In this document: piece after piece, positions 11,625 to 49,850 of the stretch
Layout of the letters: every line of letters begins with the position of its first letter
Position numbering within the stretch: position 1 is the stretch's first letter
Origin: a virus
DNA: 64,000 bases
Direction: 5' to 3' (one strand)
IMG/VR virus record: IMGVR_UViG_3300045988_179014
Location: 128,001-192,000 of that record
Made by a program: the position numbers and the translations under genes
The notes under the pieces: model-generated
What the model was told of the DNA's origin: nothing
The model's input: only the letters and a program-made list of their open reading frames with translations
The model's database searches: none

Positions 11625-11755
11625 GCGTTTTGAGCTTGATTTTTGTGTTTCCTGATGCATGTATCGCAAACAAGGTTTTCTCCCGAAACCTCTTGAAAAT
11701 GCGAAAACTACCCCTGAATAAGTTAGGTAAGACCGGGCTTATTCAGGGGTAGTTA
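11625..11755. promoter_or_regulatory. Copy 1 of dispersed intergenic element (conserved box + 12-bp hairpin CCCCTGAATAAG/CTTATTCAGGGG with T-run in gene orientation)
   Basis: Shares GTTTCCTGATGCA(A/T)GTATC(A/G)CAAACAAG...CTTGAAAA...CCCCTGAATAAG with copies at about 28.7 kb and 49.7 kb. In minus orientation the hairpin is followed by TAGTTTTCGCATTTTC. Confidence 0.55.
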
Positions 11756-11765
11756 TAGATGGATT

Positions 11766-13361
11766 TTAACTTAGTCGGCTGTCATCAGAGATGTTGATGA
11801 CATTACATATTTTGTGTAGCGAATCAGGTACCGATGAAAAACCGCCTTCTGTTGTCACGAGAATAACCGAATAATATGTACTGCACAGTAGCTCTTGTTC
11901 AACCCGCTGCCAATCCGTGTATCCGTCGGTTCCCAGTATAACAATATTAGGCCGTTTCTTGCGGGGAATCGAGTTGGCGTACTTAAAAGCTACGCTCATA
12001 TCAGTCCCCCCGCCCCCATACAAATCAATTTCACGAACTGATTTCAGGGGAGCAATATTCTTGATTTCCGTGTCAACCGAAAAAACCGTCAACCCACCTT
12101 TTTGCCGCGAACTATTTGAGACAATTGATTCTGCTTCAATCAGCACACTCTCATAATCAGACTTGGTCATGGAGCCAGACGTGTCAATTCCGATGTACAC
12201 CACCGGAGCATAAGACACTTGTCCGGGGAAAATTATCTTTCCAGTATAGCGACGATTAACTTTCCGGTACGAAGTTTCCGTCCTTCCAATTATAATATTA
12301 GAGTAAGCATTTGAAACTGCTCGTCTAAGCAACTCCTGCCACCGAACTTTGGGCGGTTCCATCAAGTTCAGCATAGCTTTTAGCAACTCTGTGGCCGTAC
12401 CGTAACCCTGTCCACCCGAGTTCAGCTCGTCCTTGATGCGCGCTGTTGTATTTCTTTGTGCGAGTGAACGTTCGGTATCAGTAATACGCTCGATGCCAGC
12501 TTCGTCAGCCGCATCCGAACGCGAAAGAGTGCTTTCATCACAGTGTCGTGAATTTTTGGATGATTTGTTACCTTGAGACATTCCTTTTTTGAAGTCATCC
12601 AGTACATCAGAATCGGATGAACTGCCATTGCCCGAGTTTGATTCATTAGACGGATTCTGCGAACCGGAGCCATTTTGGGAAGATGACTGGTCAGAATCGT
12701 TTTCAGAACCTTCTCCTGAAGAATCCTGACCCTGACCATCATTGGTATCTGAATCGTTTCTCTCAGTTCCTTGTTGGCCTTGGTTCTGGCCTGATTGTGA
12801 CTGACCAGATAAACCAGAGCTGTTTCCAGAATCATCACCATTCATGGACAAAGCATCTGCATAAAACTCCATAGTCTTAAATGGCGGCAGATTGAATTTT
12901 TTCGGCGTTAGAAGCATTGAGAAATCGCCCCGTTTTAGGGTTTCCAAGACAGTATTGATTTCCAAATCGCCTGCAACGTTCATCTGTTCAGGCCCAATGC
13001 CCAAACTCTCCGCACGCACAAAATGATTATTTAGCACATGCATACATTCATGCAACAGTACTATAGCTTGCATTTCTTTGTCGCACTGGTAAAGAAACCA
13101 GTACGAAAGTCCCACACGAGCATGAACGTCTGTGTATGCAGTTTTAGCGGTTGCATCCAAAAATGGGCGTAACACGGACAACGCATCACGAAACGATGGG
13201 AGAATGTCTTGAGCTTTCCAGAGCGCCCGAGAAAATATATTGCGCTCATCCGTTGTAAGCGCGCGAATTGGATGATTCTTCAAATCGTATTCCAACCGCT
13301 TCAGAATCTCCTTTTGTTCCGGGGTGAAGTTCTCAACCGTGTTATTGTTATTGTTCACCAC
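11766..13361 (-). CDS. Zincin-like (HExxH) + VWA-domain protein, MoxR partner (DUF2201-like architecture)
   Basis: LLHECMHVLNNHF (HExxH). Long acidic S/G/N/Q-rich linker. C-terminal VWA with MIDAS residues YIGIDTSGSMT ... GGGGT ... ILGTDGYTD. Confidence 0.75.
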   Translation of the reverse strand: MVNNNNNTVENFTPEQKEILKRLEYDLKNHPIRALTTDERNIFSRALWKAQDILPSFRDALSVLRPFLDATAKTAYTDVHARVGLSYWFLYQCDKEMQAIVLLHECMHVLNNHFVRAESLGIGPEQMNVAGDLEINTVLETLKRGDFSMLLTPKKFNLPPFKTMEFYADALSMNGDDSGNSSGLSGQSQSGQNQGQQGTERNDSDTNDGQGQDSSGEGSENDSDQSSSQNGSGSQNPSNESNSGNGSSSDSDVLDDFKKGMSQGNKSSKNSRHCDESTLSRSDAADEAGIERITDTERSLAQRNTTARIKDELNSGGQGYGTATELLKAMLNLMEPPKVRWQELLRRAVSNAYSNIIIGRTETSYRKVNRRYTGKIIFPGQVSYAPVVYIGIDTSGSMTKSDYESVLIEAESIVSNSSRQKGGLTVFSVDTEIKNIAPLKSVREIDLYGGGGTDMSVAFKYANSIPRKKRPNIVILGTDGYTDWQRVEQELLCSTYYSVILVTTEGGFSSVPDSLHKICNVINISDDSRLS

Positions 13362-13448
13362 GACATCCTTACTGTTAATCTTCCAATCCCGCCAATTCTA
13401 TCATGGAATCATCTCATACACCAAATTGAACGCATCGAGTTCACATGC

Positions 13449-13481
13449 GGAGTGAGGAAAATATAACACTCTCCTCACTCC
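13449..13481 (-). promoter_or_regulatory. Hairpin (10-bp stem GGAGTGAGGA/TCCTCACTCC) between ligase gene stop and VWA gene start
   Basis: Perfect inverted repeat. No clear T-run, so terminator versus regulatory stem is undecided. Confidence 0.3.
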
Positions 13482-13486
13482 AGCAC

Positions 13487-14512
13487 TCACAATCCATGCT
13501 TTAGTAAATATTTGTTGTTGATGATTTTAAAATTCCTATTAACATCAAGCCATTCTGGTAGTGTTGCTGTGGAATCATCTACCAAATGGAACACAATGCC
13601 TTCATCGAGCAGGCCATTGGTAATCTGTCCACGAAGCGTTGAGACTTTTTCAATCATCTCATCCAAATCCCCGGTTGGGGCCCATTCATCACCCAAAACA
13701 GGGACAGAGCACTTGTTGAAAACATCATCCCAATCAGCATGAGGAACTTTGACTGAATTCTCCCATATGGCAAACACGAATGGACGCAAATGCTCAAGCT
13801 TTAGCCGATTCCCATTAAATTTTGGTCCGGCCAGCTCAAATTGCACAGCCATACCAGGATATTGCTTAATGGCATCTACAAGACCAAATTGCTCAGCCAC
13901 TTGGAACCCTGCAACATCCTTTGACGTTTCCCAATTCCGACTGAAAATCCGGATATTTTCTCCATCGTTTAACAAGGTTTGAGAAGACCCATCTACCTTA
14001 ACTGTCGGGACCCATTTCATTTCTTTGATTAAGTCCCAATATTCCGAAAGAGTTTGCACCCGAATAGCATCCGTTTTCGGAGCCCATTTGGTATCAAACC
14101 GGCCAATGATGTTCCCATTCTGAGGTAGCTGTTCCTCCCATTTATAAACACCTACCATATCTGTCACATCTGTTCCAACGGGGAGAGAAGCATCCAATCC
14201 AAGTTCTTCCAGGGACATAAGCAAACCCTGAGAGACTACGCCCCTCAGTTTACGGGTACGCAGAACATGTCCTTTGACTGTTGTGCCATTGACTACAACA
14301 CTTTTCTGCTTATGAGTTTGAAACGATTCAAAATGTGGATTGGTTTCTGGTAGTAATGTATCCGTCTCAAAATACACAGCTTTCATGCCAGGCCGGAACG
14401 TGTTTTTACGAACAACCACCTTCCAACCCAACACATGTGCTGTCTCAATTTGGTCAGCATTGTCAATAGTCTCTATTGCTTTTACTGTCTGAATAGTTGC
14501 CAGCTTCCTCAT
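13487..14512 (-). CDS. ATP-dependent RNA ligase, DraRnl/Rnl5-like (N-terminal OB-like domain + nucleotidyltransferase)
   Basis: Motif I KVDGSS with the lysine at about residue 172 of 341, same size and layout as DraRnl. Downstream motifs IRIFSRN and FAIWENS. Confidence 0.65.
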   Translation of the reverse strand: MRKLATIQTVKAIETIDNADQIETAHVLGWKVVVRKNTFRPGMKAVYFETDTLLPETNPHFESFQTHKQKSVVVNGTTVKGHVLRTRKLRGVVSQGLLMSLEELGLDASLPVGTDVTDMVGVYKWEEQLPQNGNIIGRFDTKWAPKTDAIRVQTLSEYWDLIKEMKWVPTVKVDGSSQTLLNDGENIRIFSRNWETSKDVAGFQVAEQFGLVDAIKQYPGMAVQFELAGPKFNGNRLKLEHLRPFVFAIWENSVKVPHADWDDVFNKCSVPVLGDEWAPTGDLDEMIEKVSTLRGQITNGLLDEGIVFHLVDDSTATLPEWLDVNRNFKIINNKYLLKHGL

Positions 14513-14558
14513 TTTTTATCCTATCCTATAATCTAATGCTAATACAGTATAAACTATT

Positions 14559-15038
14559 TTATTCAATTACTACAATACCCAATCTGCTCAATGCTTCACA
14601 TAATCGTTCAATATGTGTAGAGTAACGCTCAATCAAACGAGCAGGGGGATTATTGGACAAATTGACTTTCATGTCTGCATATTTGACAGAAAGTGCTATT
14701 GTGCTATTTGAACGAATCAACCGGTCAATGTATGCAGAATAAGTTTCTTCGTTCTTCCGACTATCCATTAGCAACACATCAATCAGGTCAGGAAAATCCA
14801 GCCTGATTCTCTCCTCGTATTCTGGATGGTCTTCTATAACATCATGTAACCATGCTGCCGCTTCCACCAATGGCGAGTTTGACAACTTTCTTGCTTCATG
14901 AGCAGTCAAAGCCAGATGAGTCGTATATGGAAATTCTCCCCACTTGTCTTTTGCGTGTGCTTCTGAGGCCAACAAAATAGCCTTTTCAACCATGTCTTTT
15001 GAATCCATATTACCCCCTGTATATTCTTTGCTACACAA
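14559..15038 (-). CDS. HD-domain phosphohydrolase
   Basis: H...HD signature (THLALTAHEA ... WLHDVIEDHPE). Probable start at internal MDSKDMVEK. Confidence 0.7.
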   Translation of the reverse strand: MCSKEYTGGNMDSKDMVEKAILLASEAHAKDKWGEFPYTTHLALTAHEARKLSNSPLVEAAAWLHDVIEDHPEYEERIRLDFPDLIDVLLMDSRKNEETYSAYIDRLIRSNSTIALSVKYADMKVNLSNNPPARLIERYSTHIERLCEALSRLGIVVIE

Positions 15039-15108
15039 TAAGACAATTACTTGCTGATTGAAACAGGAATCATTAATTCATAATTCCTGTACATTCTCAA
15101 AACTGCTT

Positions 15109-15651
15109 TCATTGACTTATTTCTTCCATAGCTTGGTACAAAGCGACTTGTAGTCGGTTTTCTCGCTGCGGTTTGAAAACAGTCGGAATTTTAGGGTATG
15201 AAAAACCCACCTCTTCCGGGGTATGGTTACCCTTTCTCCCATTACAGGACAAACAGGCAACACAGAGGTTACCCCAAGTATTTAAACCACCTCGGGATTT
15301 CGGGATAATGTGGTCAATGGTATCACCATATTCATGACAATACTGGCAAGTCCAATTATCTCGAATCAAAATCATGTTTTTGGATACCGTGGTGTCCATA
15401 TTCACTTTTTTAATTCGACCACGAGGGACATAGCGATTTAGCCCGATAACTAGCGGACGGGCCATGGAAAAATGTTGGCTCCGTACCATGGAACCATCTG
15501 CACGGGGAATCAAAACATATGCATCATGGCTCAACACCATTGTGGTAGCTCGCATCCACGAAATAGTGTTCATCACAGTCATGGAGGTATCCACAACTGC
15601 AACACGATTTTCCCCGATTTCTTTTTCCAAGATACTTATATGTTCCATCAT
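15109..15651 (-). CDS. HNH endonuclease
   Basis: CQYCHEYGDTIDHIIPKSRGGLNTWGNLCVACLSCNGRKGN (HNH with Zn-binding Cys pairs). Confidence 0.8.
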   Translation of the reverse strand: MMEHISILEKEIGENRVAVVDTSMTVMNTISWMRATTMVLSHDAYVLIPRADGSMVRSQHFSMARPLVIGLNRYVPRGRIKKVNMDTTVSKNMILIRDNWTCQYCHEYGDTIDHIIPKSRGGLNTWGNLCVACLSCNGRKGNHTPEEVGFSYPKIPTVFKPQRENRLQVALYQAMEEISQ

Positions 15652-15718
15652 GGTCTCTTTCTGACTTGCTTTTCCCTTCTAGCGCGTCGCTTCTGTATCC
15701 TATCCAGTCATACTTATA

Positions 15719-17302: not shown

Positions 17303-17377
17303 TCATTCTGCAACTTGACACGGTCCAATAGACTCAGAATTGAATAGACAACATAAAACACTTCAGATAGAATAGGT

Positions 17378-18013
17378 TTGAATGATGATGCCATCTACCC
17401 AACATGGAGTGTTATGAGTTCATATTGTCATATGTTCCCGTTAGACGACATTTGGAAACAATGTCTGGCTAATCCAGTGTACTCAGAAACACAGCAGTGG
17501 CCAGATACCATGAAATCATTGATGGATGACCCAATTGACCGTCATATCATCAATGAACTTATGAGACAGTATCAGAAACAAGGCAAATTCCGTTATCCAA
17601 TTGTTTTAGCGCGGGACAATAATGAGCCTTACATGGTGGTTGATGGTACACATCGTGTAATAGCAGCAAAACTATTGGGATTGGAAACAATATGGGTGTC
17701 ATACGGTTTTGTTGAAACTGACAACAACACGTCTTTGGTTACCACTATTTGTTTTTCAGAAGACCAGTGGACCCAAAACCTGTTCGATGACTCCATAACA
17801 GATGTATTTCGCTCTGTTCCAGGTAATGATGAAATATGGTTTACAAGCTCAATGATGAATCCAGGAAACCCCTTCGCCATTTACTGGGATGCTGAAGAGG
17901 GCGAAACAAAAGACATACCTTTATTGCATAACTCTTTGCAGCAATTGATAACAAGATACATCAAACCAAACGTTACATATACGCTTCACACCACAGAAGA
18001 GCCTATTGATTGA
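17378..18013 (+). CDS. ParB/Srx-like nuclease-domain protein (only plus-strand gene)
   Basis: YPIVLARDNNEPYMVVDGTHRVIAAKLLGLETIWV, a ParB N-terminal domain DGxHR box. Probable TTG/ATG start ambiguity. Confidence 0.7.
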   Translation: MNDDAIYPTWSVMSSYCHMFPLDDIWKQCLANPVYSETQQWPDTMKSLMDDPIDRHIINELMRQYQKQGKFRYPIVLARDNNEPYMVVDGTHRVIAAKLLGLETIWVSYGFVETDNNTSLVTTICFSEDQWTQNLFDDSITDVFRSVPGNDEIWFTSSMMNPGNPFAIYWDAEEGETKDIPLLHNSLQQLITRYIKPNVTYTLHTTEEPID

Positions 18014-18220: not shown

Positions 18221-18245
18221 CGTGGTTTATTTCAAAATATAAACA

Positions 18246-22370: not shown

Positions 22371-24056
22371 TCAATCAAAAGTTTTCACCCAGCGCACCTT
22401 ACCAGAATCCCAAACTTTGCCTAAACCATTCAATTTAGCCAATTCGTTCTCAGTGGCGCTGGAATCAAACAACAAATCAGGGTCACGTTCAAACCGAAAA
22501 CCGTTCTGCTCATACAAAAATCCATCACTGACTTCACAATCCGAAAAAGTCACCAGCCTACGAGGATTACAAACAATCTCGAAATGCTTCAACAATTTAC
22601 TGAACCCACCAGGAACAGACACAGAAGTAGCATAACGAACAATGAAATAACAATCCTGCTGCTTCATCACTGAAAACACTGCCACCAGTAGATTGGTTCT
22701 CTTGTCCCACAAACCAAAATGCTTCGACGCTCCAACAAAGCCTTGAATATGATTTGTATTCAGGAACTCCCGTGCAACGGAAACCGAAACGTCCCCTATT
22801 CGAGTTTGTCGTGCCCCCACCCCTTTCGGAGACACCTTCAATCTGTGTGCAATCATTCGTTGTAGAATTGACCGTTTGTAATACCAGTCATCTTCCCAGA
22901 TTTGAAACAATGACACACCTTGAGCACGACAGGAAACATACTTGTCACGATGATAGTTACGATTTTTGCCAAATTGTTCACTGTGCCAATACAACCCATT
23001 CACTTCAATAGCAAAATGTAACTCTGGAAAGAAGAAATCCACTTCATATGGTCCAATGAGACTACGCACTCGTTCCTCTACAGGCCCAGAATAAACCGAA
23101 CGAACAAAGGCCCCCACTGATTGCTCCAACCTTGATGTCCCTTTATCGCGATTGGCAGGTAGTAAAGGCATCATCCACCGTTCCAACCAGCGTATTGTAA
23201 ACTTGGAGTCAGAGTCATCAAGACAATTGTTCAACTCATCCACCAAATCATGATAAGTCAATGTTCTATTGGCATGAAAATATGCAGCCAGTGAGTCCAA
23301 GTCTTTGTAAGGTGTTTTCAATAATCGTGCTAAACTTGTTTCTTTGGCTTTACGTGATGAACGTCCACGATTTTTGACCACGTTGTCTGCACTTTTCTTC
23401 AACTCCAGCTTGTTGACAATTTTACTCCATGTACGTTCCCCAATAGAATGTCCTGTTTCTGTCTTAATCAGTTGCAGTAACTCGGTAGCTGTCAAATTGT
23501 CATCATTGTACAATTCATGTAAACGTTTTTGAGTGAAACCATGTGCAGCCAACTCTTGTATCTGGTTTTCCAAAGTTGTTTGTTTACGAACTTTGATGTT
23601 ACGTTCCTGTAAAATTCTGGAAAGTACTGAAGGAGAAATTCCATATTCTCGATACATGGATTCCAAAGACTTTCCAGTTTGGTATTCTGCCACTGCTTCA
23701 TCAGCTGTGATTCCCACCCCATATTTGGCGTCAGTTGCGTATTTTCTGCGTTGTGATTCATTAATTTTTGCCATACGCAACATATTGGTTTCTTCTATGG
23801 AACGATTCTTCAACCCTGCATATGTCCACAAAGAAGCAAGAGACGATTTGGATATCACCGTTTCCCCAGCTTTTTGATTGATGGCTGCGATGATGTCGTT
23901 TTTACTCATACCATCATCATATTTGGTTTGGATTGTTTCAACATCCCAACCCAATGATGCCAAAACTGTGATACGACGTTCTATCCTCTCTACATTGGTT
24001 GATTTTTTGTTTGGTGTATTGTGTCTTGAATGTTGTGAAATAGTAGAATCTGTCAT
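22371..24056 (-). CDS. Homing-endonuclease-like protein: multiple HTH modules + DUF559/Vsr-like PD-(D/E)XK endonuclease domain
   Basis: VDFFFPELHFAIEVNGLYWHSEQ...QIWEDDW (DUF559 signature). Several HTH-like segments (YREYGISPSVLSRILQERNI). Confidence 0.6.
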   Translation of the reverse strand: MTDSTISQHSRHNTPNKKSTNVERIERRITVLASLGWDVETIQTKYDDGMSKNDIIAAINQKAGETVISKSSLASLWTYAGLKNRSIEETNMLRMAKINESQRRKYATDAKYGVGITADEAVAEYQTGKSLESMYREYGISPSVLSRILQERNIKVRKQTTLENQIQELAAHGFTQKRLHELYNDDNLTATELLQLIKTETGHSIGERTWSKIVNKLELKKSADNVVKNRGRSSRKAKETSLARLLKTPYKDLDSLAAYFHANRTLTYHDLVDELNNCLDDSDSKFTIRWLERWMMPLLPANRDKGTSRLEQSVGAFVRSVYSGPVEERVRSLIGPYEVDFFFPELHFAIEVNGLYWHSEQFGKNRNYHRDKYVSCRAQGVSLFQIWEDDWYYKRSILQRMIAHRLKVSPKGVGARQTRIGDVSVSVAREFLNTNHIQGFVGASKHFGLWDKRTNLLVAVFSVMKQQDCYFIVRYATSVSVPGGFSKLLKHFEIVCNPRRLVTFSDCEVSDGFLYEQNGFRFERDPDLLFDSSATENELAKLNGLGKVWDSGKVRWVKTFD

Positions 24057-27041: not shown

Positions 27042-28676
27042 TCACTGCTGCGGTTGTGGCCAAGAGTTGGGGATTGTGACTCCTTCAGGAATACTAGGTG
27101 GCAACGGTTCTGCTGGTTTATCCATGTCCAAAATAGCTGGTCGTTCTGGAACACTGGTACATCCAGCAGGTTTGGGCGGGATGCTGACAGATGGACTGGG
27201 TGAAGGTGCAGGAATGGTGGGTTGAGGAGTCACCCCAACAGATGGCGATGGCTCAGGAACAGGTGGAATGACAGGGGTACGGTTCTGCTGGTCATAGAGT
27301 TCACCCCATTGTTCCTCCCATCGTTTCAACTCATCCTGTTTGGTTTTACATGTTTGCAGTTTTTCGTTGTATGTATTGGATGCAGCAGCTTTACGGTCAT
27401 CAAAAGAACGCCAGTCATTGTGCTGTTCAACATAGGAATACCATATTTTACGAATCTTGTTGCGTTCTGTGATTAACCAAGACCACTTGCTGTGCACTTC
27501 ATCCACTTGTTGTACATAATTGTTCCAGGCGTCAGCTTGTGGGGCTGTCAATGCCATTTTGAAAGACCATTGAAGTTTACTATCCACATACTCTTGAGCT
27601 GCTTTATCCAGTTCGTTTTGTTTTGATTCCAGCGATTGGTTCTTTTCAGTAATCAGTTTGTTCGTATCATACACAGGAGATTTCTGCCCACTCCATGACC
27701 ATCCACAACCAGGTCCAGCAATGTCCGCAACATGATAAAAAGCCTTGTCCGTGAAATCGGTCTGGTCTGCGATTTTTTGTGGTAATTCGGGTTTTGTAAC
27801 GGTTGCTGGTAGTTGCGGAAAACCTGATGGCAATGGAGCTTCTGGTTCAACTGCTTTCGGATTTCCAATTTCCAACAAATTGATTGATGTCGGATTGGGG
27901 AGATTGTCAATTTTCACTGTTGTATGCAATTCTGTGTACTGCACTAAACCTGTGTATGCATCTTTGTCATAGAAAAAACTACGTTTGGCGTCATCTGGTG
28001 ATACTGTGAGGGAAACACATTGGGAAGCTTGTAAACTTGTTGTCATTTCTGTTGAGTAGAATTGCAACAAAATGTCCCGTTGTTCTGAATTGCTTGCTGT
28101 GACTCCAATAATGGCATCTCCCATGGTAATCATGAATGTATTACCTTGAACAGCCACAATCCCATGCTCTTTTTGTGTTACGGATACTTTGCCACATTTT
28201 TCCAATGCAGCTACATAACTGTGGAATGCTTGGTAGGCTTGCCCAGCACCGTAAACCTGTATGCGAGTTTCTACACCGCTTCCTGTTGCTGTAGTCGTGG
28301 CCAGAAGACTGTTGGGGACATCACCAATGCTTCCACACAGTGAAGGATTGATGACATGTTGGGGTTTGGCTCCTTCACTCACTTTCCATTGGTCCACTCC
28401 AGATGGTTGTTTGGCAATCAATTGAGAAGCCCATGTGACAGCTGGCGATTTGGTGCTGGCGATGTCTTGGTAGGGACTGATTTTTTGCGGCTCTTCAAAC
28501 AAATGATTATAACTTGCATACCCTGTATGGACCATTCCAGCAAATGCAATCAAAGTTGCTACCAAAAACATGAGATATAAAACAGGTTGATTGAAAATCC
28601 AAGCAATTAAAGGAAACTTGATAATACTACTTTCCTTGTAATCTCGGTAACGTTTGCGAACCATGTTTCTCCTCAT
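27042..28676 (-). CDS. Membrane-anchored protein with Pro-rich C-terminus (544 aa)
   Basis: N-terminal TM. C-terminus PVIPPVPEPSPSVGVTPQPTIPAPSPSPS. Confidence 0.55.
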   Translation of the reverse strand: MRRNMVRKRYRDYKESSIIKFPLIAWIFNQPVLYLMFLVATLIAFAGMVHTGYASYNHLFEEPQKISPYQDIASTKSPAVTWASQLIAKQPSGVDQWKVSEGAKPQHVINPSLCGSIGDVPNSLLATTTATGSGVETRIQVYGAGQAYQAFHSYVAALEKCGKVSVTQKEHGIVAVQGNTFMITMGDAIIGVTASNSEQRDILLQFYSTEMTTSLQASQCVSLTVSPDDAKRSFFYDKDAYTGLVQYTELHTTVKIDNLPNPTSINLLEIGNPKAVEPEAPLPSGFPQLPATVTKPELPQKIADQTDFTDKAFYHVADIAGPGCGWSWSGQKSPVYDTNKLITEKNQSLESKQNELDKAAQEYVDSKLQWSFKMALTAPQADAWNNYVQQVDEVHSKWSWLITERNKIRKIWYSYVEQHNDWRSFDDRKAAASNTYNEKLQTCKTKQDELKRWEEQWGELYDQQNRTPVIPPVPEPSPSVGVTPQPTIPAPSPSPSVSIPPKPAGCTSVPERPAILDMDKPAEPLPPSIPEGVTIPNSWPQPQQ

Positions 28677-28736
28677 ACACGCATTTCAACAGATGTTCAC
28701 ATTGTAACGAGAATGAGTCAGGGACAAGTACGGAGA

Positions 28737-28885
28737 ACGATTTTAAGCGAGATTTAGCGGTTTCTTGATGCAAGTATCACAAACAAGCATTTCGCATAAA
28801 TCTTCTTGAAAACATGAAAAACACCCCTGAATAAGCTAGGTACAATCTAGCCTATTCTAGGGGCGTTACAGAACGCGATTTTATG
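28737..28885. promoter_or_regulatory. Copy 2 of dispersed intergenic element (hairpin + T-run + conserved box)
   Basis: Contains ACGATTTTAAG...GTTTCTTGATGCAAGTATCACAAACAAGCATTTC...CTTGAAAACATGAAAAAC + hairpin CCCCTGAATAAGCTAG/CTAGCCTATTCTAGGGG + GCGTTACAG. About 80% identical to copy 3. Confidence 0.6.
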
Positions 28886-28912
28886 GTTTTCTCATATACT
28901 CATTTTTGTGGT

Positions 28913-29884
28913 TTATGATGGATGTTGATTGGTCGAACTGGAAACAGCTTCCTTGTTGCTACTGGTTGAGCTTTGATTAACTGGATTCGTGTTGGGAGCG
29001 GAAGTGGCTGATGGTTCTGGGTTGGAAACAGATGGAGAAACAGTTGGAGCGGATTCTGAAACATGAGAGTTATCAGAATTATTGTTAGAAGAAACTGCTT
29101 GTTGTTTCTTCAACACAGTAATTTCGTCTTGCAATGATTTAATTGTTTCATCATAGTTTTTGGATTCCTTCAAAGCGTCCAATTCTGTTTGAAGTTTTGC
29201 ATTCTGTTTCTCCAACTCTGTAATACGTGTTTTCAATGATTCATCCGAACTTGTTTTTTCAGTTTCATGAGCTTTTGCTGCTGCCAAGTTGATGATGTCA
29301 TGTTTTTCATCTTCACTGATTGTAGCCATGGTTGTGGTGTGAACTGTGGTGTAATTACTATCAGTGTTTACATTACTGGCTGAGATGAGATAGCTGCTTC
29401 CGATTGTGAGCATTGATACCATGAGGAACAACGCAGAAAATTTCAATGTTGGATGAGCAGCAGAATATCTCCTCAACCTATTCCACCAAGATGATTTGGA
29501 TTCGCTCACATCAGAGTCCAAATCTACAGTAGGATGTGTGTTTTCATCTGTTGAGGCGGTTTCATTGCTGTTGGAACGTAATCCAGGAACAATCTTTTTG
29601 GCTCCTAAAGATGTGACAGAAAGCACAACTCTATAGAACTCACTCAAGAATGCAGAACCTACAGATACCAAACCAACAAGAATCAAACTGTTTATGAATC
29701 CGGTCAATTGTGATGAAATGAGTGCCATGGAAACGGCAGTCAAAGCTGTTCCCACCACTTTCAACAATGACAGATTATCACCATCTTTCAAAATCTTTCG
29801 TATGGTGTGTTTAATGTTGTGTGTATTGTTCTCAGCGTTGGTTTCTGTTCTTTCCTGATTGGTTTCTGTAATAGTTGTTGACAC
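28913..29884 (-). CDS. Membrane protein with coiled coil and Ser/Thr-rich tail
   Basis: Three TM segments, a coiled-coil (LQTELDALKES...), and an S/N/P-rich C-terminus. Confidence 0.5.
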   Translation of the reverse strand: MSTTITETNQERTETNAENNTHNIKHTIRKILKDGDNLSLLKVVGTALTAVSMALISSQLTGFINSLILVGLVSVGSAFLSEFYRVVLSVTSLGAKKIVPGLRSNSNETASTDENTHPTVDLDSDVSESKSSWWNRLRRYSAAHPTLKFSALFLMVSMLTIGSSYLISASNVNTDSNYTTVHTTTMATISEDEKHDIINLAAAKAHETEKTSSDESLKTRITELEKQNAKLQTELDALKESKNYDETIKSLQDEITVLKKQQAVSSNNNSDNSHVSESAPTVSPSVSNPEPSATSAPNTNPVNQSSTSSNKEAVSSSTNQHPS

Positions 29885-32100: not shown

Positions 32101-32101
32101 T

Positions 32102-43199: not shown

Positions 43200-43661
43200 T
43201 CAGCTGTCATCATCATCCAAAAATGGGTTGTAATCCTCATTTTGTATGTTGCGAATTGATGCTGTTGACGGTTTTCTCATAGAGTTTTTGGAAATGTTCT
43301 TTGATTTTTCATATATTGGAACATCGCGCCAATTGTCTTTGGTAATGATTCCGGTCTCTCCATTCAAAACATCCCAACGGAATTTCCAAAGTGCTTTCAC
43401 CTTCTTGGCGAGAGTAACCACAAGTCTAGGACGGGAAGGTACCACTGAATCGCCCACTTTGTAACCTGCCCAATCTCTTGCTTCCACCATGAACAAATCA
43501 GAAATACCAAACTCGCCTTTGTTTACCATTTCCTCCATGGAAACATCTATCAGACTGTTAATGACATCTTCAACCACATCCACACGAATGTTGGCCTGGC
43601 GGGCTACTCGTTGTACCAAATCTCTTTTGCTTCGACGTTTTCTCATAAATATTTTGTCCAT
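43200..43661 (-). CDS. Divergent HU/IHF-fold DNA-binding protein with acidic SSB-like tail
   Basis: RDLVQRVARQANIRVDVVEDVINSLIDV... resembles the HU N-terminus and arm region. Tail EDYNPFLDDDDS. Confidence 0.45.
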   Translation of the reverse strand: MDKIFMRKRRSKRDLVQRVARQANIRVDVVEDVINSLIDVSMEEMVNKGEFGISDLFMVEARDWAGYKVGDSVVPSRPRLVVTLAKKVKALWKFRWDVLNGETGIITKDNWRDVPIYEKSKNISKNSMRKPSTASIRNIQNEDYNPFLDDDDS

Positions 43662-43664
43662 TCT

Positions 43665-44117
43665 TTATTGAGTGAAAGAGCCTACGCCATAGAACACAGC
43701 TGTACGCGCCCATGTAAGAACACACTGTTGAATATGTTCTCGAAAATCTGCTAGTTTAACTGACTCATCACGTTTTTCATCATCAATTTCCCAACCGTCT
43801 CGTGTTTGAAGAAGTTTGGTTGTTGATGTACGAGCTTTCGGGCTGGGAAGAGTTATTTCCACACCTTTTTGGGGGGAATTCACTTTAATGGTCATTCGGT
43901 CTGACATATCCCATGGAAGCCGAGCCATTTCAGACACTTTGCGTCGTAACTGATTCCGAGAATGATACATAATAATGTCATGGTCGTCAGTATTTAAATA
44001 TACATTCCATTTTTTACTTGCAATTTCAAATTCATCTTCCATGGTCTGGTCAATGATTTCTGTGAAGTTGGTTTCTAGCTTCAGGTGTACTAGCATTTTG
44101 CTGTTGTCAATCTTCAC
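43665..44117 (-). CDS. Hypothetical protein (150 aa)
   Basis: ORF in the tiling. Confidence 0.45.
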   Translation of the reverse strand: MKIDNSKMLVHLKLETNFTEIIDQTMEDEFEIASKKWNVYLNTDDHDIIMYHSRNQLRRKVSEMARLPWDMSDRMTIKVNSPQKGVEITLPSPKARTSTTKLLQTRDGWEIDDEKRDESVKLADFREHIQQCVLTWARTAVFYGVGSFTQ

Positions 44118-44174
44118 GAGTCCTCACTATGATGTGTAAAAATGTCCTGACCTGCGCTTATTTTACCAATGGGA

Positions 44175-44208
44175 AAGGGGCCACTCCTAGATAATGGAGT
44201 GGCCCCTT
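44175..44208 (-). terminator. Strong hairpin (13-bp stem AAGGGGCCACTCC/GGAGTGGCCCCTT) immediately downstream of the HU gene
   Basis: Perfect GC-rich inverted repeat with a 7-nt loop, located 20 nt past the HU stop in the transcription direction. Confidence 0.55.
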
Positions 44209-44228
44209 GTAATCCGAAAAGATGTCAA

Positions 44229-44525
44229 TTAGTTTTCTTTATCTTCAGCCATCTTGTCTCGGAATTTCTTCAGAGGATGAATTCGCACAGTACGTTTTTC
44301 TGGCGCTTCAAGGTCCTCACCAGTGCGTGGGTTTTTCATGATGCGAGCTGACCGGATGCTTGGGGAGAAAGCAGCAAATCCGCTTACTTTGACTTCACGA
44401 CCTTCTGACACATGTTGCATTACACTATCTTGAAAAACATTGATGAAACGTTCAATCTCTGCTTTTGGTTTTTTCATTTCTTCAGCAATTTCGGCAATCA
44501 GGTCAGGTTTGTTGATGACTGGCAT
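44229..44525 (-). CDS. HU-family nucleoid protein
   Basis: RNPRTGEDLEAPEKRTVRIHPLKKFRDKM aligns with HU [27 protein letters not shown]. 98 aa. Confidence 0.8.
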   Translation of the reverse strand: MPVINKPDLIAEIAEEMKKPKAEIERFINVFQDSVMQHVSEGREVKVSGFAAFSPSIRSARIMKNPRTGEDLEAPEKRTVRIHPLKKFRDKMAEDKEN

Positions 44526-44601
44526 GGCAGCTCCTAAAAATAGCTTGATTCAACAGCGTCAGGTGTGGTAGTTGTTATGACAAATATCAAGAAATACGGG
44601 T

Positions 44602-44958
44602 TTATCGGTTCTTATTGAAGAATGTTTTCCGAGCACGTCTAGGTGAACTTGATGATTCTACTCGCGCATCACGTAAAATGGCTTGCATACTGGCATCACC
44701 ACCACTTACATCATCATCCATCTCAAACATAGAAGGGCCGTCATCATCATCTTCCTTTTCATCGGTTTCTTCAGTTGCCGGCTCCATCCCGATTTCTGCC
44801 AATGTGGGCAAACTCTCATTTGAGTATTTGTAACGGTCACGAATGGTTTTAATCAAGAACCATAGAAATAACAGCACAATTCCAGCAACAACAACTGCTA
44901 GTACTGTAGCTATTATCTGACGTAAAGCAAAAACAGATTCCAACAGTACATTCAACAT
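44602..44958 (-). CDS. Small membrane protein with acidic C-terminus
   Basis: One TM (IIATVLAVVVAGIVLLFLWFLI) followed by an acidic tail. Confidence 0.45.
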   Translation of the reverse strand: MLNVLLESVFALRQIIATVLAVVVAGIVLLFLWFLIKTIRDRYKYSNESLPTLAEIGMEPATEETDEKEDDDDGPSMFEMDDDVSGGDASMQAILRDARVESSSSPRRARKTFFNKNR

Positions 44959-46055
44959 TACATTTTCTCCATTTTTCCACCAACGAACAACGGCAGATAT
45001 CGTTCTGGTTTAATATGTTTTTTCTGAGCACGAATATTCTTCAAAGTTTGCTCCCTGTTGAATTGTTCAAAATTTGTCCCATCTTCCGAAGCAAGAAACG
45101 AATAAAATGGACCATGAACATCTTTCAACAAGTCTTTCCAACGATTGGAAACATTTTTGTATTCAGCAGGTGGCAAAGAAGCAGCAATACCAGCCAAATA
45201 TGGAGGAATGTTAGCATAATTCAAATCAGACAACAGAACCGCTTTGGCCGTGTCGGTAAAATTCCATGATTCGAAAAATACTCCAAACGGGGTCTCCACA
45301 AAAGGTGTTTGAAAATTCTGGGACAAGGTTACATCTGCATGATAATCTTCCAATGGGTCCAGAAGATTCACATGATTCAAGTTCTGTTCAAAATTTTCCT
45401 GCTCCTCAACCAGCTCTAATGTCATATTACGATTGACAGCATACGGTTTGTTACTTTTCTCCAACCGTCCATTCATGGTTTTCAAATCAGCTTTTCCAGA
45501 ATGAAAATATGCCAAGACTTCTTCGTTTGTAGCATATCGTCCCATTTCTTCAGACATTTTCTTGCGTACAGCTGAAATCTTCTTGTATCGCTGGAAACGC
45601 GAAGGAGCAACGCCAAACGGTGCCTCTATAACTGATAGTTCTTTCTTGGCATATGTGATAATCCATTGAAACAAATAATTGGTGGATGATTTGTTCAGTT
45701 TGTCCACATCAAAATGCCGCAACCCTTTAATCATTCCATTGATACCTGCGTAATATAAAACAGTGAACAAATTATCGTCTTTGCCGTTCAAGTGAGAATT
45801 TTTGATTAATTTGTTGATTTCACGGGTTATGAGCGGACCAGCCAAAGAAGCAATACGATTCACCACCAAATCCCTGAGACGCGACTGTGTTTCTAATGCG
45901 TTTCGTAATCCTGGGTCTAAATCAGGTTCCAGTAATTGTTCCAAAGCCCTGTCACCCATATGAAACAATGGAACATAATATATGAGAGCTTCTACAGTAA
46001 TACGGTCATTGGAGTTTTTACTTGTATGGAGTTTGGATTGTTTGGTAACATTCAT
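44958..46055 (-). CDS. Sigma-70-family factor (divergent)
   Basis: TNYLFQWIITYAKKELSVIEAPFGVAPSRFQRYKKISAVRKKMSEEMGRYATNEEVLAYF resembles sigma regions 2.4-3. Confidence 0.5.
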   Translation of the reverse strand: MNVTKQSKLHTSKNSNDRITVEALIYYVPLFHMGDRALEQLLEPDLDPGLRNALETQSRLRDLVVNRIASLAGPLITREINKLIKNSHLNGKDDNLFTVLYYAGINGMIKGLRHFDVDKLNKSSTNYLFQWIITYAKKELSVIEAPFGVAPSRFQRYKKISAVRKKMSEEMGRYATNEEVLAYFHSGKADLKTMNGRLEKSNKPYAVNRNMTLELVEEQENFEQNLNHVNLLDPLEDYHADVTLSQNFQTPFVETPFGVFFESWNFTDTAKAVLLSDLNYANIPPYLAGIAASLPPAEYKNVSNRWKDLLKDVHGPFYSFLASEDGTNFEQFNREQTLKNIRAQKKHIKPERYLPLFVGGKMEKM

Positions 46056-47296
46056 ATACTGCGTCCCCCTGTTATGGGGCTGGTTGGTAGTCTTCTGGTA
46101 CTAGAGTTGGAAGACGTAGAAATAGGATTGTCTTTCGAAACGGAAGCAGACGAGTTAACTTTCCGAGCTGGATGGCGTACACTTCTTTCTGATGTCAAGA
46201 AACGTTCAGGATTGACACCATGATTCGCAAACTGAACCCGCAACGCATCAGACATGTTTCCCTCCTTGTAAAAAGCATCCTTATTGCTGTCATACAAATA
46301 CAGTGGTTGAGTTGTGATTTTGGCATCCTCACCTGTACCTAATGTTGGAACAATCTCTTGAATATGGCTCACTCGGTGTTGCCCATTACGAAGAAGTACC
46401 AATTGCACAATAATGTCCACAGCATTGGCGATGTCAGTGTTGATAGCACGTACTGGCACATTTGGACGACCTTCAGTAGCAAAATTGGTCATTTTACGTA
46501 AACAAGCAACCGGGTCATCGGCGTGAATAGTGGTCAATGAACCTTCCATACCAGAGTTAGCAGCAGTAAGAAAATCAGCGAACTCTTTACCACGAGTTTC
46601 ACCAATGATTAATCTATCTGTTCTCATACGTTGAAACTGTTGAACAACCCATGACAGGGAGGCAACACTATTGGGGTCCAAACCAGGCTGTGCGGGAACT
46701 GAATGCAAATATGACACGTTTGGTTGTGGTAATACCAGTTCAGGGGTATCTTCAGCAACACCAATACGAACATTTGTTGGAATGAGGTTCGCCATTGCCT
46801 CCAACATGGTTGTTTTACCTGCACCAGTCGCTCCACTGAATGTTATTGTACGGCTCGCTTGCATAGCTGCTATCAAAAATGCCATCATTTCGTCGCTCAT
46901 AGACCCCCGAGCGGCTAAATCCTCCAACTTCCGTAATGAAGTAGATTTCTTGGCGATAGTAACTTGTGGGTAATCAGTGGATGGTGGAAGAACAATATGG
47001 CACCGTCCTCGAATTTCTTGCCCATCCACACTGAAAAACAATCTACCCTCAAACAAAAAACCATTAGGGTCGTATTTTGTCAGATTGCTTTTCACAAATG
47101 GAATCAGACCTTCTTCAATTCCTCTAGCATAATCCGATTCAGAAGACCTACCAATACTTATCTGACTGCGTTGACCATTTCGTTTGAGAAAAAATTGTCC
47201 TGGACCATTAGACTCTATTTCGGACACATCCGCTTCCAACAACAAATTGAAACAACGGTTCCATTCAGACACTTTGCTGATACTGTACATATTCAT
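46052..47296 (-). CDS. VirB11/CpaF/TadA-type secretion ATPase
   Basis: Walker A SGATGAGKTT. Asp box VAEDTPEL. Walker B LIIGETRG. His box GSLTTIHAD. Confidence 0.8.
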   Translation of the reverse strand: MNMYSISKVSEWNRCFNLLLEADVSEIESNGPGQFFLKRNGQRSQISIGRSSESDYARGIEEGLIPFVKSNLTKYDPNGFLFEGRLFFSVDGQEIRGRCHIVLPPSTDYPQVTIAKKSTSLRKLEDLAARGSMSDEMMAFLIAAMQASRTITFSGATGAGKTTMLEAMANLIPTNVRIGVAEDTPELVLPQPNVSYLHSVPAQPGLDPNSVASLSWVVQQFQRMRTDRLIIGETRGKEFADFLTAANSGMEGSLTTIHADDPVACLRKMTNFATEGRPNVPVRAINTDIANAVDIIVQLVLLRNGQHRVSHIQEIVPTLGTGEDAKITTQPLYLYDSNKDAFYKEGNMSDALRVQFANHGVNPERFLTSERSVRHPARKVNSSASVSKDNPISTSSNSSTRRLPTSPITGGRSI

Positions 47297-47365
47297 TAGG
47301 TCCAGTTCCTCTCAATTGTTGTCAACAAAGCGCTAATATCGGTCGTTTCACCAAATAAAAACATA

Positions 47366-49654
47366 TTATTTCAATGTTTGAAGCTCTACCACTTTATCCG
47401 CTATCGCATCAATGGAATCATTATGTGCAATTAGAATAACCTGCCCTTGACAGACTTCTTTGATAGTGGAAAGAATAAGTTCAGCACGGTTGGCGTCTTG
47501 GGAAACCAAAACTTCATCAAGAATAATGAGATTACGCGACGCTCCACCATTCAACAACATGGAAATGGACAAACGTAACGCCATTGCTGCTGCTGACAAT
47601 TCTCCACCTGAAAGAAGACCAACAGCTCGTTCAGTCCCATCAGCCAACATAACAGTTGCCTTGAATTGTGCATCCAGTTTCAACCTAGTAAACTTACCCT
47701 CTGTAAATCGGTTGAGAAGGTCTGAAGCATAAATCTCAATAACAGGAATGGAATTGGTGATACGGTCCTCTCGGAATTCCTCAATCACTTTTGTTGTGGT
47801 GGCAGCTAATTCAACACTTTTCAAAACTGCACGATGTTTGTTCAGTTGCTCCTCATAAGATGCAACCTGACGGCTCAAATTGTCAAAACGTTCTTTGGCA
47901 ACATTCAAATCAATTCGTGCTGTTGCCAAATTTGCAGCCTTGGATTTTTCAAGTTCCAAATTCTTGTCCAAAACTGCGCGTAATTTCTCCAAGGACTGTG
48001 GTGTTACAGAACCTGTCGATTTCAATTTGTCCCGACCATTCTGAAGCCGTTTCTCAACTATCTCGATTTCTCGTGACAATGTTTGAGCACGTTCCAACAA
48101 TCGGTCATACTCTGCTTTTACACTTGCCTGCTGTTTCGCTTCATTATATGCATCTTCCAAAGTTGTTAACTGTGTTTCAATTCTTTGGATAGATGTTAAT
48201 GTATTATCGAGATTTTCACGAAGTGTTGATTCCTCTTGAGTTTCCAGCACTTTCAAAGCATCAATCAGAAGTTCAAATTTCTCTATTGCCGTTTCACTTC
48301 TGTCAAGGGCATGTTCCAACTCAATACGTTTTACCCGTAATGTCTCTACTTGTTCCTGTGCATGGATTATCTCTGTCTGCAATGTTTCAACCACTGTGGA
48401 AACATCATCCACGTGCTGAAGACAAGTAGGACAAGCACCATTTTCTCTTTGAAGCACTGTAATGGCTTTTTCCAGTTTTTTGATATCAGACGAATGAGCA
48501 GCACAAGTTGAATCCAGTGTACGAATTTGTTGTTCCAACACACTCACACGTTTGACGGCTTTATCCAATCCTGTAGTAGCACTGTCCAAATCTTTGATTG
48601 ATGATTTGTCCACAAGTTGTTGTGCTTCTGAACGAGAATCACAGATGTTTTTCAATAAACGCTCTAAATCAGACTTTTCAATGTCCAATGAACGTAATTC
48701 ATGTTTCAATCCATTAATTTGTGATTCCAGTTCTGTTAAATCCGTATTCCCCAATAAATGATTAAGCTGTTTCTTTTTTGCCTCTTTTTCTTTAATAATC
48801 ATGGCAAAAGTTGTCTGCATTGATTCTAATTTGGCTTGAAGTGTGGCAATCCCATGACGAACTTCTTCCATCGAAGCAACTTGCTCTGCTTTTACATGTA
48901 TTTCATCACGTAATTTGTTTACTTTTGCAGAGATTGTGTCATGTGTTGTAACTGCTTTTGCTTCAATACTTTGAGTCTTATGGAAGATGGCAGCTTGTTT
49001 CTCCAACTCCTGACGTAATTGGTTCAGTTCTTCTTCGCTGACATCAGAAAGAGCAGCCGCTTTACGGAGAGTGTTGCTTTCTTGACGGGCATTGTCCAAA
49101 GCTGCGGTAATGGATGAGATACCAGTTAATTTCTCAATAACAAGTGCCCGTTCTCTAGGAGTGGCAGAGACTAAATGGTCCACTTGTTTCTGTTGCACAA
49201 GCACGGAGGCAAGAAATCCTTTTTCATCCATTTTCAAACGTTGCCGAATGTATATTTCAGCATGCGAAACTCCGGGACCGGCCACTTGTTTAGGAGTAAG
49301 ATTCCCATGACCATCATCAGTCAATTCCCACACTTCGCATTCCACCGTACCACTTTTGCTAACCATACGACGTTCAATGAGTAATGGTTGGTCATCAACT
49401 TCAATGTTCAACCGAACGAAGCATTTGTCTTTTCCGAATTTGGCTCCATTGCGATAAATAGCAGCTGTTTTGGATACCCCATGTGGCTTTGTGCCAAACA
49501 GTGCCCATGCGATTGAATCCACAATTGTTGATTTACCTGTACCATTGGCTCCGCTGAGAGCAGTGATTCCATCAGATTCGGGCTCAAAAACCACATGAGA
49601 ATGGGAACGAATATTTGAAAGTTCAACACGTGTGAGTTTAATCATGATGTCCAC
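47366..49654 (-). CDS. sbcC: SbcC/Rad50-family ATPase with CPTC zinc hook
   Basis: N-terminus LSGANGTGKSTIVDSIAWALFG. Central coiled coil with NGACPTC hook. C-terminal LSGGELSAAAMALRLS signature + ILDEV D-loop. Confidence 0.85.
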   Translation of the reverse strand: MDIMIKLTRVELSNIRSHSHVVFEPESDGITALSGANGTGKSTIVDSIAWALFGTKPHGVSKTAAIYRNGAKFGKDKCFVRLNIEVDDQPLLIERRMVSKSGTVECEVWELTDDGHGNLTPKQVAGPGVSHAEIYIRQRLKMDEKGFLASVLVQQKQVDHLVSATPRERALVIEKLTGISSITAALDNARQESNTLRKAAALSDVSEEELNQLRQELEKQAAIFHKTQSIEAKAVTTHDTISAKVNKLRDEIHVKAEQVASMEEVRHGIATLQAKLESMQTTFAMIIKEKEAKKKQLNHLLGNTDLTELESQINGLKHELRSLDIEKSDLERLLKNICDSRSEAQQLVDKSSIKDLDSATTGLDKAVKRVSVLEQQIRTLDSTCAAHSSDIKKLEKAITVLQRENGACPTCLQHVDDVSTVVETLQTEIIHAQEQVETLRVKRIELEHALDRSETAIEKFELLIDALKVLETQEESTLRENLDNTLTSIQRIETQLTTLEDAYNEAKQQASVKAEYDRLLERAQTLSREIEIVEKRLQNGRDKLKSTGSVTPQSLEKLRAVLDKNLELEKSKAANLATARIDLNVAKERFDNLSRQVASYEEQLNKHRAVLKSVELAATTTKVIEEFREDRITNSIPVIEIYASDLLNRFTEGKFTRLKLDAQFKATVMLADGTERAVGLLSGGELSAAAMALRLSISMLLNGGASRNLIILDEVLVSQDANRAELILSTIKEVCQGQVILIAHNDSIDAIADKVVELQTLK

Positions 49655-49704
49655 ATTTTATCAAATTCAGCATTGTTGACTTTTTGCCGGTCAACGCACC
49701 AGAA

Positions 49705-49850
49705 ACGATTTTAAGAGAGGGTTAACAGTTTCCTGATGCAAGTATCACAAACAAGCATTTCCAACAAAACCCCTTGAAAACATGAAAAACGCCCCCGAAT
49801 AAGCTAGGTAGAATCTAACCTATTCAAGAGGCGTTACAGGAGATGATTTT
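49705..49850. promoter_or_regulatory. Copy 3 of dispersed intergenic element (hairpin + T-run + conserved box), immediately upstream of sbcC
   Basis: ACGATTTTAAG...GTTTCCTGATGCAAGTATCACAAACAAGCATTTCC...CTTGAAAACATGAAAAAC + imperfect hairpin + GCGTTACAG. Confidence 0.6.

Follow-up and report, generated by a model that had tools for sequence, protein, structure and literature searches.

A cassette of ~150–170 nt recurs three times between genes in a 64,000-nt stretch of viral DNA (IMG/VR record IMGVR_UViG_3300045988_179014, positions 128,001 to 192,000; hereafter the window). The feature is real and non-random. Our preferred, though tentative, reading is that it joins a terminator to a protein-binding regulatory site in an old, maintained module that is homogenised by gene conversion, and that it would represent a variant of PeSL-like cassettes. 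This reading builds on the repeat itself, a hairpin that covaries and is followed by a U-rich tail on the sense strand, the intergenic placement directly behind stop codons, constraint on a conserved box, gene conversion between copies and deep synteny of the sites.

Three conserved intergenic stretches had been reported in a preliminary description of this DNA, and all of them were recovered. The box pattern GTTTCYTGATGCAWGTATCRCAAACAAG, searched with up to three mismatches allowed, has three matches in the window, all mismatch-free and on the plus strand (11647–11674, 28760–28787 and 49728–49755), compared with 0.00 expected by chance (100 shuffles). A repeat search returned a single 147-nt family at 11623–11769, 28736–28882 and 49704–49850, in which identity to copy 2 is 85% for copy 3 and 69% for copy 1. 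An nhmmer search of the window with a profile of the three copies found those copies alone (E values from 4e-55 to 8e-59).

We define the cassette sense as the minus strand, the direction of the window genes, and use L-numbers as labels of the related contigs or loci that were compared with the window. Upstream of copy 1 lies a VWA/DUF2201 gene (11766–13361); the downstream gene, earlier taken for the VWA gene, is recA (Pfam RecA, 4e-90). Copy 2 is preceded by a gene for a 323-aa protein (28913–29884) and followed by a gene for a 544-aa protein (27042–28676) and then by ssb. The 544-aa protein has no family match and one N-terminal hydrophobic segment, which makes its earlier label of membrane protein acceptable. 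Copy 3 stands between a 256-aa gene (49871–50641) and an SbcC-like gene (47366–49645), the latter as originally assigned.

Read in the sense direction, the unit consists of a ~20-nt motif (consensus yTyAAAAnnnnTyCTGTAACG), the hairpin, a conserved T-rich stretch of ~19 nt (GTTTTTCRTGTTTTCAAGA), a spacer of variable sequence and fixed length, the box and the 20-nt motif once more, in direct orientation. The order first proposed for the minus strand, from stop codon through hairpin, T-rich run and box to the next gene, is upheld. The ~20-nt imperfect direct repeat that bounds each copy had been overlooked, and the ACGATTTTAAG and GCGTTACAG flanks, described as common to copies 2 and 3, are in fact parts of it. 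The components map as follows (DR-L and DR-R, direct-repeat arms beside the box and beside the hairpin, respectively):

11599–11787, minus strand: cassette copy 1, whole unit (envelope of the hidden Markov model match), between the VWA/DUF2201 gene and recA; nhmmer E=4e-55; orthologue at L007:9779–9966.
11711–11749, minus strand: copy 1 hairpin, CCCCTGAATAAG...CTTATTCAGGGG, with a 12-bp perfect stem, 16 nt past the TAA stop at 11766–11768.
11692–11710, minus strand: copy 1 U-rich tail and conserved extension, sense TAGTTTTCGCATTTTCAAG.
11647–11674: copy 1 box, imperfect palindrome GTTTCCTGATGCATGTATCGCAAACAAG.
11625–11645, minus strand: copy 1 DR-L.
11750–11772, minus strand: copy 1 DR-R.
28712–28902, minus strand: cassette copy 2, whole unit, between the 323-aa and 544-aa genes; nhmmer E=8e-59.
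28824–28863, minus strand: copy 2 hairpin, 49 nt past the TAA stop at 28913–28915.
28805–28823, minus strand: copy 2 U-rich tail and extension, sense TGTTTTTCATGTTTTCAAG.
28760–28787: copy 2 box, GTTTCTTGATGCAAGTATCACAAACAAG.
28728–28749, minus strand: copy 2 DR-L, matching DR-R at 14/25 positions ungapped, a match reached by 1/500 shuffles.
28864–28886, minus strand: copy 2 DR-R, CGTTACAGAACGCGATTTTATGG on the plus strand.
49680–49870, minus strand: cassette copy 3, whole unit, between the 256-aa gene and sbcC; nhmmer E=5e-57.
49792–49831, minus strand: copy 3 hairpin, 39 nt past the TAA stop at 49871–49873; flagged as terminator-like, with tail CGTTTTTCAT.
49773–49791, minus strand: copy 3 U-rich tail and extension.
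49728–49755: copy 3 box, GTTTCCTGATGCAAGTATCACAAACAAG.
49700–49717, minus strand: copy 3 DR-L.
49832–49853, minus strand: copy 3 DR-R, CGTTACAGGAGATGATTTTGGG on the plus strand.

In 7/11 cases, the match between the two repeat arms of a single copy is significant (reached by at most 12/500 shuffles), and the repeat is kept in distant lineages. Its arms are alike from site to site, which makes them components of the unit rather than target duplications. A 13-codon plus-strand open reading frame (ORF; MQVSQT...) spans 11655–11697, 28768–28810 and 49736–49778 and is probably non-coding, as it has no ribosome-binding site, loses its start in L007 and carries a frameshift in L004. At gathering thresholds, Rfam 15 gave no match in the window (at E<10, copy 2 gave one chance match to a miRNA), and searches for tRNA and tmRNA returned nothing.

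The hairpin has a stem of 13–17 bp and a minimum free energy of −17 to −27 kcal/mol in the window lineage. Across 12 sequences including distant orthologues, 84.9% of the cells are paired compared with 76.2% in shuffles (reached by 0/500), 10/14 pairs have changed on both sides (2/500 shuffles) and the covariation score is 0.366 against 0.212 in shuffles (0/500); slid controls pair in 32–52% of cells. The 9 nt that start one base before the stem end hold 5–6 T on the sense strand in 7/7 window-lineage copies of alignment A7 and 3–5 T in its five distant copies, and the other strand has no similar T run after the stem. In the window lineage, 134/149 stem cells pair in the sense RNA (23 as G·U), compared with 117/149 on the other strand, and the sense fold is the more stable one in 8/11 copies. 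RNAalifold detects no conserved structure besides this one hairpin on either strand. A terminator scan flags copy 3 and the L002 copy and leaves copies 1 and 2 unflagged, probably owing to loop size or a bulge. The hairpin lies downstream of a co-directional gene at copies 1–3 and in L086/L140, L142 and L148, and does not at the inverted copies of L002/L091/L092 and L085.

We interpret the hairpin as a putative intrinsic (Rho-independent) terminator because of the sense-only T-rich run, the covariation and the position 16–49 nt past the stop codons; this assignment, already made in the preliminary description, is well supported. The cassette shares with such terminators a G+C-ended stem-loop, a U-rich run directly 3' of it on the gene-sense strand, compensatory change and, at copies 1–3, a location tens of nucleotides past the stop. 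Ordinary terminators, unlike the cassette, show no primary-sequence conservation between unrelated genes and no 150-nt conserved unit, and they lack the flanking direct repeats and the 19 conserved nucleotides after the stem.

Constraint is strongest on the box: pairwise identity among six paralogous sites, which include three outside the window, is 88% for the box and 81–84% for the stem arms, compared with 58–67% for the spacer, A-run, loop and direct repeats. In the window lineage, the box is an imperfect palindrome of 28 bp (25–28 bp), GTTTC-Y-TGATGC-AW-GTATC-R-CAAAC, which varies at its centre (W) and at the mirror-image pair Y and R. In L140, both outer arms have changed together, from GTTTC/CAAAC to CTTC/GAAG. 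As RNA, the box would close on a 2-nt loop, and a DNA site for a dimeric protein is therefore the more natural reading. As an imperfect palindrome under constraint, the box is a possible operator or protein-binding site. We also considered boxA antitermination of the lambda nut/rrn kind, which calls for a boxA-like sequence 5' of a hairpin on the transcribed strand. TCTTGAAAAC plus hairpin is similar to the Gram-positive boxA, GTTCTTTGAAAAC, a string found in rRNA-spacer primer papers, but it is on the antisense strand at copies 1–3 and in their distant orthologues, and the reading was rejected.

The cassette extends beyond the window. Two related assemblies with 97–98% identity carry orthologues of copies 1–3 and three more sites, that is, at least six sites per genome, four of which are consecutive and spaced 17–22 kb apart. 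The inspection covered ~130 kb of the element, and the copy count per genome is a lower bound. The first additional site is flanked by a homing-endonuclease gene downstream of RNR and by a 160-aa gene, p160 (L002, L091), and the second by a recX-like cluster and gyrA (L085); at both, the cassette is inverted relative to co-directional genes. The third follows a 217-aa gene in sense orientation and faces a convergent 116-aa gene (L086, L140). Orientation is conserved per site, and every copy found is intergenic; copies within coding regions, which the preliminary description had named as grounds for refutation, were not among them. A tie to homing endonuclease genes (HEGs) holds at the RNR site alone and was rejected. 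The partial ORF beside the L086 copy had no tblastn match to HEGs or other fetched sequences, and its full-length homologue in L140 is the 116-aa gene of unknown function.

Orthologues of copy 2 were found in L003, L004 and L136–138, and those of copy 3 in L001 and L139. In more distant lineages, the copy-2 site still holds a recognisable cassette in L142 (9350–9508; nhmmer E=1e-15; flanking protein 49% identical) and a faint or weak one in L144 and L145; L146 and L147 are the only lineages in which the cassette is absent there. The distant copy-3 site of L148 (5795–5893) is occupied as well (E=2e-9; SbcC 57% identical), and that of L149 (SbcC 51%) is seen by eye and in alignment A7 only, nhmmer giving no significant match. 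L092, whose RNR is 78% identical, still has a recognisable cassette at the inverted RNR site. Flanking genes are syntenic across lineages at 44–57% protein identity with the copy-2 and copy-3 sites occupied, and the sites are old. Among close strains, none of the orthologous sites examined is empty or polymorphic for presence. Box patterns had 0 matches in 185,579 species genomes (scanned twice) and, among viral contigs, gave same-lineage and chance matches only, unrelated contigs being devoid of copies; no RecA-linked cassette was found in 76 other viral contigs. At the RNR–p160 junction, the distant L093 and L125, which lack the HEG, have a generic sense terminator followed by TCGTTACAAT; as an indication of an empty site that would delimit a mobile unit, this is suggestive, though not decisive. 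Two independent assemblies end 35–250 nt upstream of sbcC, at or inside copy 3 (the start of IMG/VR contig 187329, which is L005, and L149:1–250), which could be repeat-induced breaks or coincidence.

Cassette copies exchange sequence by gene conversion. Between copy-2 orthologues, the cassette is 85–88% identical compared with 95–97.5% in the flanking 800 nt, and the unique intergenic sequence adjoining copy 2 matches at 48–50 of 50 positions. The copy-2 spacer of the window differs at 5–6 positions from its orthologues and at 1 from the paralogue L086; likewise, the L003 copy-2 hairpin has 6 differences to its orthologues and 1 to the paralogue L085. Variants are therefore common to paralogues while the unique flanks stay 96–100% identical, from which conversion between copies follows.

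The PeSL and PmSL of T4-type phages are composite promoter–terminator cassettes (Arbiol et al. 2010, PMC2839356; Comeau et al. 2014, PMC4122927), to which the present cassette may be functionally analogous. Both are short repeated intergenic units that set a stem-loop terminator beside conserved regulatory sequence, both have many copies per large genome, and in both the copies recombine, by mosaic gene conversion in the cassette. The conserved part of PeSL, however, is a near-consensus sigma-70 promoter (TTGACA-N17-TATAAT), whereas the cassette has no promoter inside and promoter-like motifs outside. It is also larger (150–170 nt), is flanked by direct repeats, contains a palindromic box and is found in either orientation. 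PeSL cassettes occupy hyperplastic regions of orphan genes; the cassette sits at syntenic sites beside core DNA-metabolism genes on a conjugative-type replicon. Because it lacks the internal promoter that defines PeSL, we do not count it as a member.

The absence of that promoter also bears on the preliminary description, which had proposed a conserved promoter for a sigma factor of the element. This proposal is not supported as stated: no −35/−10 pair was detected in any copy, the promoter motifs lie outside, two sites are inverted and one faces a convergent gene. A consensus scan found no sigma-70-type promoter inside any copy, and a column-wise scan of the alignment found no conserved −35/−10 pair. 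Within the box, the hexamer closest to a −10 is GATACT, which follows TGT and is missing its last T in 4/10 aligned copies. Small genes downstream of the inverted copies were considered as a rescue for the promoter model, and none was convincing. Of the consensus sequences for ECF and sporulation sigma factors, sigma-54, the MotA box, the ComX cin-box and the LexA box, none fits the cassette by eye, and we treat these comparisons as leads only.

The extended −10 motif TGnTAnAAT, the typical promoter motif of the element, occurs 12 times on the sense strand, with 7 occurrences inside the intergenic 7.4% of the window, typically right after a terminator hairpin in intergenic regions. Motifs of this kind precede the gene downstream of each copy:

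11562–11570, minus strand: extended −10-like TGGTAGAAT before recA, outside the cassette; conserved as TGGTAAAAT in L007.
28701–28709, minus strand: −10-like CGTTACAAT, a near variant of TGnTAnAAT, before the 544-aa gene, outside the cassette; TACAATGTGA conserved in L142.
49655–49663, minus strand: extended −10-like TGATAAAAT, outside the cassette, ending 10 nt before the sbcC ATG (49645); same geometry in L148 and L149.

Intergenic regions of the element generally show a G+C-rich terminator hairpin with an extended −10 directly behind it (for example 3848–3941, 8983–9066, 13362–13486 and 44118–44228). The longest recA ORF starts with TTG at 11571, and TGGTAGAAT lies within the region 11514–11571; given the conservation of that motif at 11562–11570, ATG at 11516 is the more likely start. 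For sbcC, a −10-like hexamer ends 6–11 nt before the ATG in three divergent lineages (window 49643–49663; L148:5985–6003; L149:235–253) with no clear Shine–Dalgarno sequence, which suggests that the mRNA may be leaderless.

In our preferred reading, where we infer termination by the hairpin, protein binding by the box and any regulatory effect, the three sites would be paralogous copies of an intergenic punctuation module that selection has kept in a family of giant conjugative-type elements. The hairpin and U-rich run would act as a Rho-independent terminator ending the upstream transcription unit. The box, ~50 nt past the hairpin, would be recognised by a DNA-binding protein that is probably dimeric and probably a product of the element. 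This protein would modulate transcription into the following unit (recA; the 544-aa gene with ssb; sbcC). The core promoters of these downstream genes (TGnTAnAAT) would lie outside the module, and gene conversion keeps the copies alike, as in the PeSL cassettes of T4-type phages.

Several observations weigh against this reading. Among close relatives alone, 88.9% of the hairpin cells are paired but covariation does not exceed that of column shuffles, and the sense-strand preference is missing in distant lineages, with L148, L144 and L092 folding equally well or better on the other strand. Distant lineages keep only the terminator-proximal half of the box (GCTTGTTTGTGATAC) and not its palindrome partner, and one-base indels, which suit a strict dimer site poorly, interrupt the box of copy 1 in L007 and of copy 2 in L004. 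The window has no stand-alone box outside the cassettes, and no candidate box-binding protein was identified. The distance from box centre to −10 varies, at 96 nt for recA, 70 nt for the 544-aa gene and 84 nt for sbcC. At the RNR–p160 site and upstream of gyrA, the module runs opposite to co-directional genes, the RNR orientation being kept in three lineages (L002/L091/L092), and the box at the L086/L140 site faces the 3' end of a convergent gene. A pure logic of terminator, then regulator of the next gene, therefore fails somewhere. The reading leaves three features unexplained, namely the inverted copies, the direct repeats at the ends and the long conserved sequence behind the stem, and they keep several rivals alive.

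An RNA-level element would be rather unlikely. It might be a hairpin for RNase III-type processing or stabilisation at operon junctions, a short RNA made of the CUGUAACG motif and the hairpin and driven by a −10-like hexamer in the hairpin-proximal repeat, or a transcript that pairs in trans with the gyrA and p160 leaders and so couples DNA-metabolism operons. The hairpin covariation and the strand-specific G·U excess in the window lineage agree with such a function, as does a TAAAAT/TATAAT/CAGAAT/CAAAAT hexamer 8 nt before CTGTAACG in 9/11 sequences having the hairpin-proximal repeat, including all such distant ones (L149 is cut off there). Moreover, the inverted copies lie inside leaders of co-directional genes and are ~80–85% complementary to sense-copy transcripts. 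Yet the hexamer comes without a conserved −35 or TG extension, the box could not fold into a sound hairpin as RNA, no Rfam family matches, and the RNAalifold analysis shows one hairpin only, on either strand. Distinctly unlikely, in our estimate, is that the cassette is a dedicated cis-acting module of a 0.3–0.8 Mb element family and more than a terminator, that is, a nucleic-acid signal made up of its 20-nt direct repeats, box half-site and hairpin and read by the machinery of the element (for example for priming or early expression on a transferred single strand) or a source of sense-copy RNAs that pair with inverted-copy mRNAs in the gyrA and p160 leaders and so co-regulate replication and repair operons. 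The REP/BIME, ERIC, Correia and pneumococcal BOX/RUP repeats belong to a similar size class, are intergenic with an internal hairpin, occur in both orientations and may affect termination or mRNA stability. We regard as quite improbable that the cassette is a selfish or mobile interspersed repeat of this or the MITE kind, with termination as a by-product and the box as the site of a transposase, recombinase or nucleoid protein. Its length of ~150 nt, multiple strictly intergenic copies in both orientations, short terminal repeats and internal palindrome would suit such an origin, and the element encodes IHF/HU-like proteins. Against this, its ends are direct repeats conserved between sites, and terminal inverted repeats and target-site duplications are absent; sites and orientations are conserved over the protein divergence given above, close strains show no presence–absence polymorphism, and neither the species genomes nor unrelated viral contigs hold a copy. 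Compared with those repeat families as they are described, the cassette is low-copy, strictly syntenic over deep divergence and confined to one element family, besides lacking the inverted repeats and duplications.

Two readings at the DNA level seem less probable again. Frpo and ssi are, as presented in PMC11541004 (citing Masai & Arai 1997), single-stranded DNA promoters of plasmid leading regions, and a hairpin on the transferred strand that directs early transcription or priming near ssb, recA and sbcC, in the manner of Frpo, ssi or sso, would be a signal in conjugative transfer. The element is of a conjugative type (TraG/VirD4-like, TrbL/VirB6-like, VirB11-like, TadE and NikA-like genes), and, like Frpo in the leading regions treated in that source, the cassette provides repeated non-coding hairpin units before ssb and establishment or repair genes, here on one strand before ssb-, recA- and sbcC-type genes. 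The Frpo/ssi elements portrayed there fold into a long imperfect hairpin whose stem restores −35 and −10 elements as duplex, however, and folds of 206 nt of DNA from both strands yield only the short central 13–17 bp hairpin. Copies also lie on both strands within one replichore of uniform GC skew: on IMG/VR contig 187329, two orientable copies are on the minus and three on the plus strand, with no change of gene strand or GC skew. We hold this reading to be very improbable, as it fails the structural test, just as the mobile-repeat reading fails on inverted repeats, polymorphism and deep synteny. Equally doubtful to us is a maintenance site, whether centromere-like or bound by a recombination or replication-related protein, comparable to the dispersed SopB sites of phage-plasmid N15 or to dif/pdif. 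The palindromic ~28-bp box with its mirror-image variable positions, the 17–22 kb spacing of the four consecutive sites and the orientation independence of a palindrome, which tolerates inverted sites, speak for it. The loss of one box half-site in distant lineages, the want of any tie to GC-skew switches and the absence of a visible ParB, tyrosine recombinase or serine recombinase gene from the annotated 64 kb speak against it. The likeness of the box to the parS and dif consensus sequences is weak. A Ter-like polarity or a link to origin or terminus was rejected, given the uniform GC skew over the window and neighbouring loci.

For the transcription of the long one-directional gene arrays of giant oral extrachromosomal elements, the cassette provides, in one family of them, a conserved multi-copy non-coding landmark that marks operon boundaries before recA-, ssb-, sbcC- and gyrA-type genes. 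It could serve for mapping 5' and 3' ends, for finding the protein that binds the box or repeat and for recognising family members in metagenomes. It also extends concerted evolution by gene conversion between regulatory repeats to a setting outside T4-type phages. If true, the single-strand signal or the trans-pairing version would amount to a regulatory logic without a described counterpart; if the cassette does no more than terminate and its remaining sequence hitch-hikes, the finding is an ordinary one.

The replicon that carries the cassette is, as judged from its sequence, a conjugative-type extrachromosomal element and not a T4-like phage. A 337,400-bp contig (k119_28504 of ENA analysis ERZ27262748) contains a stretch 100% identical to the window, and near-identical elements of ~345 kb occur in human oral metagenomes. 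Besides the conjugation-type genes listed above, it encodes a tail-lysozyme-type hydrolase, a group-1/2-like sigma factor (52792–53697), the IHF/HU-like proteins (44229–44525 and 43200–43661), a PBP1a with PASTA domain and, for DNA and RNA metabolism, DnaB, RecA, SSB, SbcC and RNA ligases; neighbouring DNA of the element adds RNR, signal peptidase, holA, PIF1 helicase, recX-like and gyrA genes. No close DNA relatives were found among GenBank phages and PLSDB plasmids, and tblastn against cultured phages gave at most 31% identity for DnaB and no match for a 1339-aa protein. The 544-aa protein has homologues on contigs as long as 727 kb, and SbcC (461 homologues) on contigs as long as 828 kb, which points to a large, uncharacterised family. 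The Inocles, giant extrachromosomal elements of the human oral microbiome recognised only recently, have a G+C content of 24–32% (PMC12340149). The present element resembles them in habitat, size and gene content and differs in its G+C content of 42%, for which reason we treat the likeness as a lead and not as an identification.

All window genes but one are on the minus strand. The sole plus-strand ORF (17378–18013) lies within a 943-bp gap and has no family match; in the relatives L136–L138, it is likewise called as a reverse-strand gene. Free-standing HNH/DUF4379 homing endonuclease genes vary between strains, with products of 561 aa versus 588–590 aa (window 22371–24056, L002:2606–4507, L092:12313–15993, L125:11167–11786). 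Between RNR and the next gene, one or two such genes are present in some lineages and none in others. In L125–127, RNR is interrupted by an insertion, which may be an intein or an intron. Finally, TTCTTATTC repeats with GGGGCGTTACAG and several CGTTAC repeats behind them are common to three unrelated viral contigs of 34–46 kb that come from one and the same sample (L084:1343–1361, L088:4311–4329, L089:10773–10791); this shared motif is a chance match to the search pattern, yet is itself a repeated motif.

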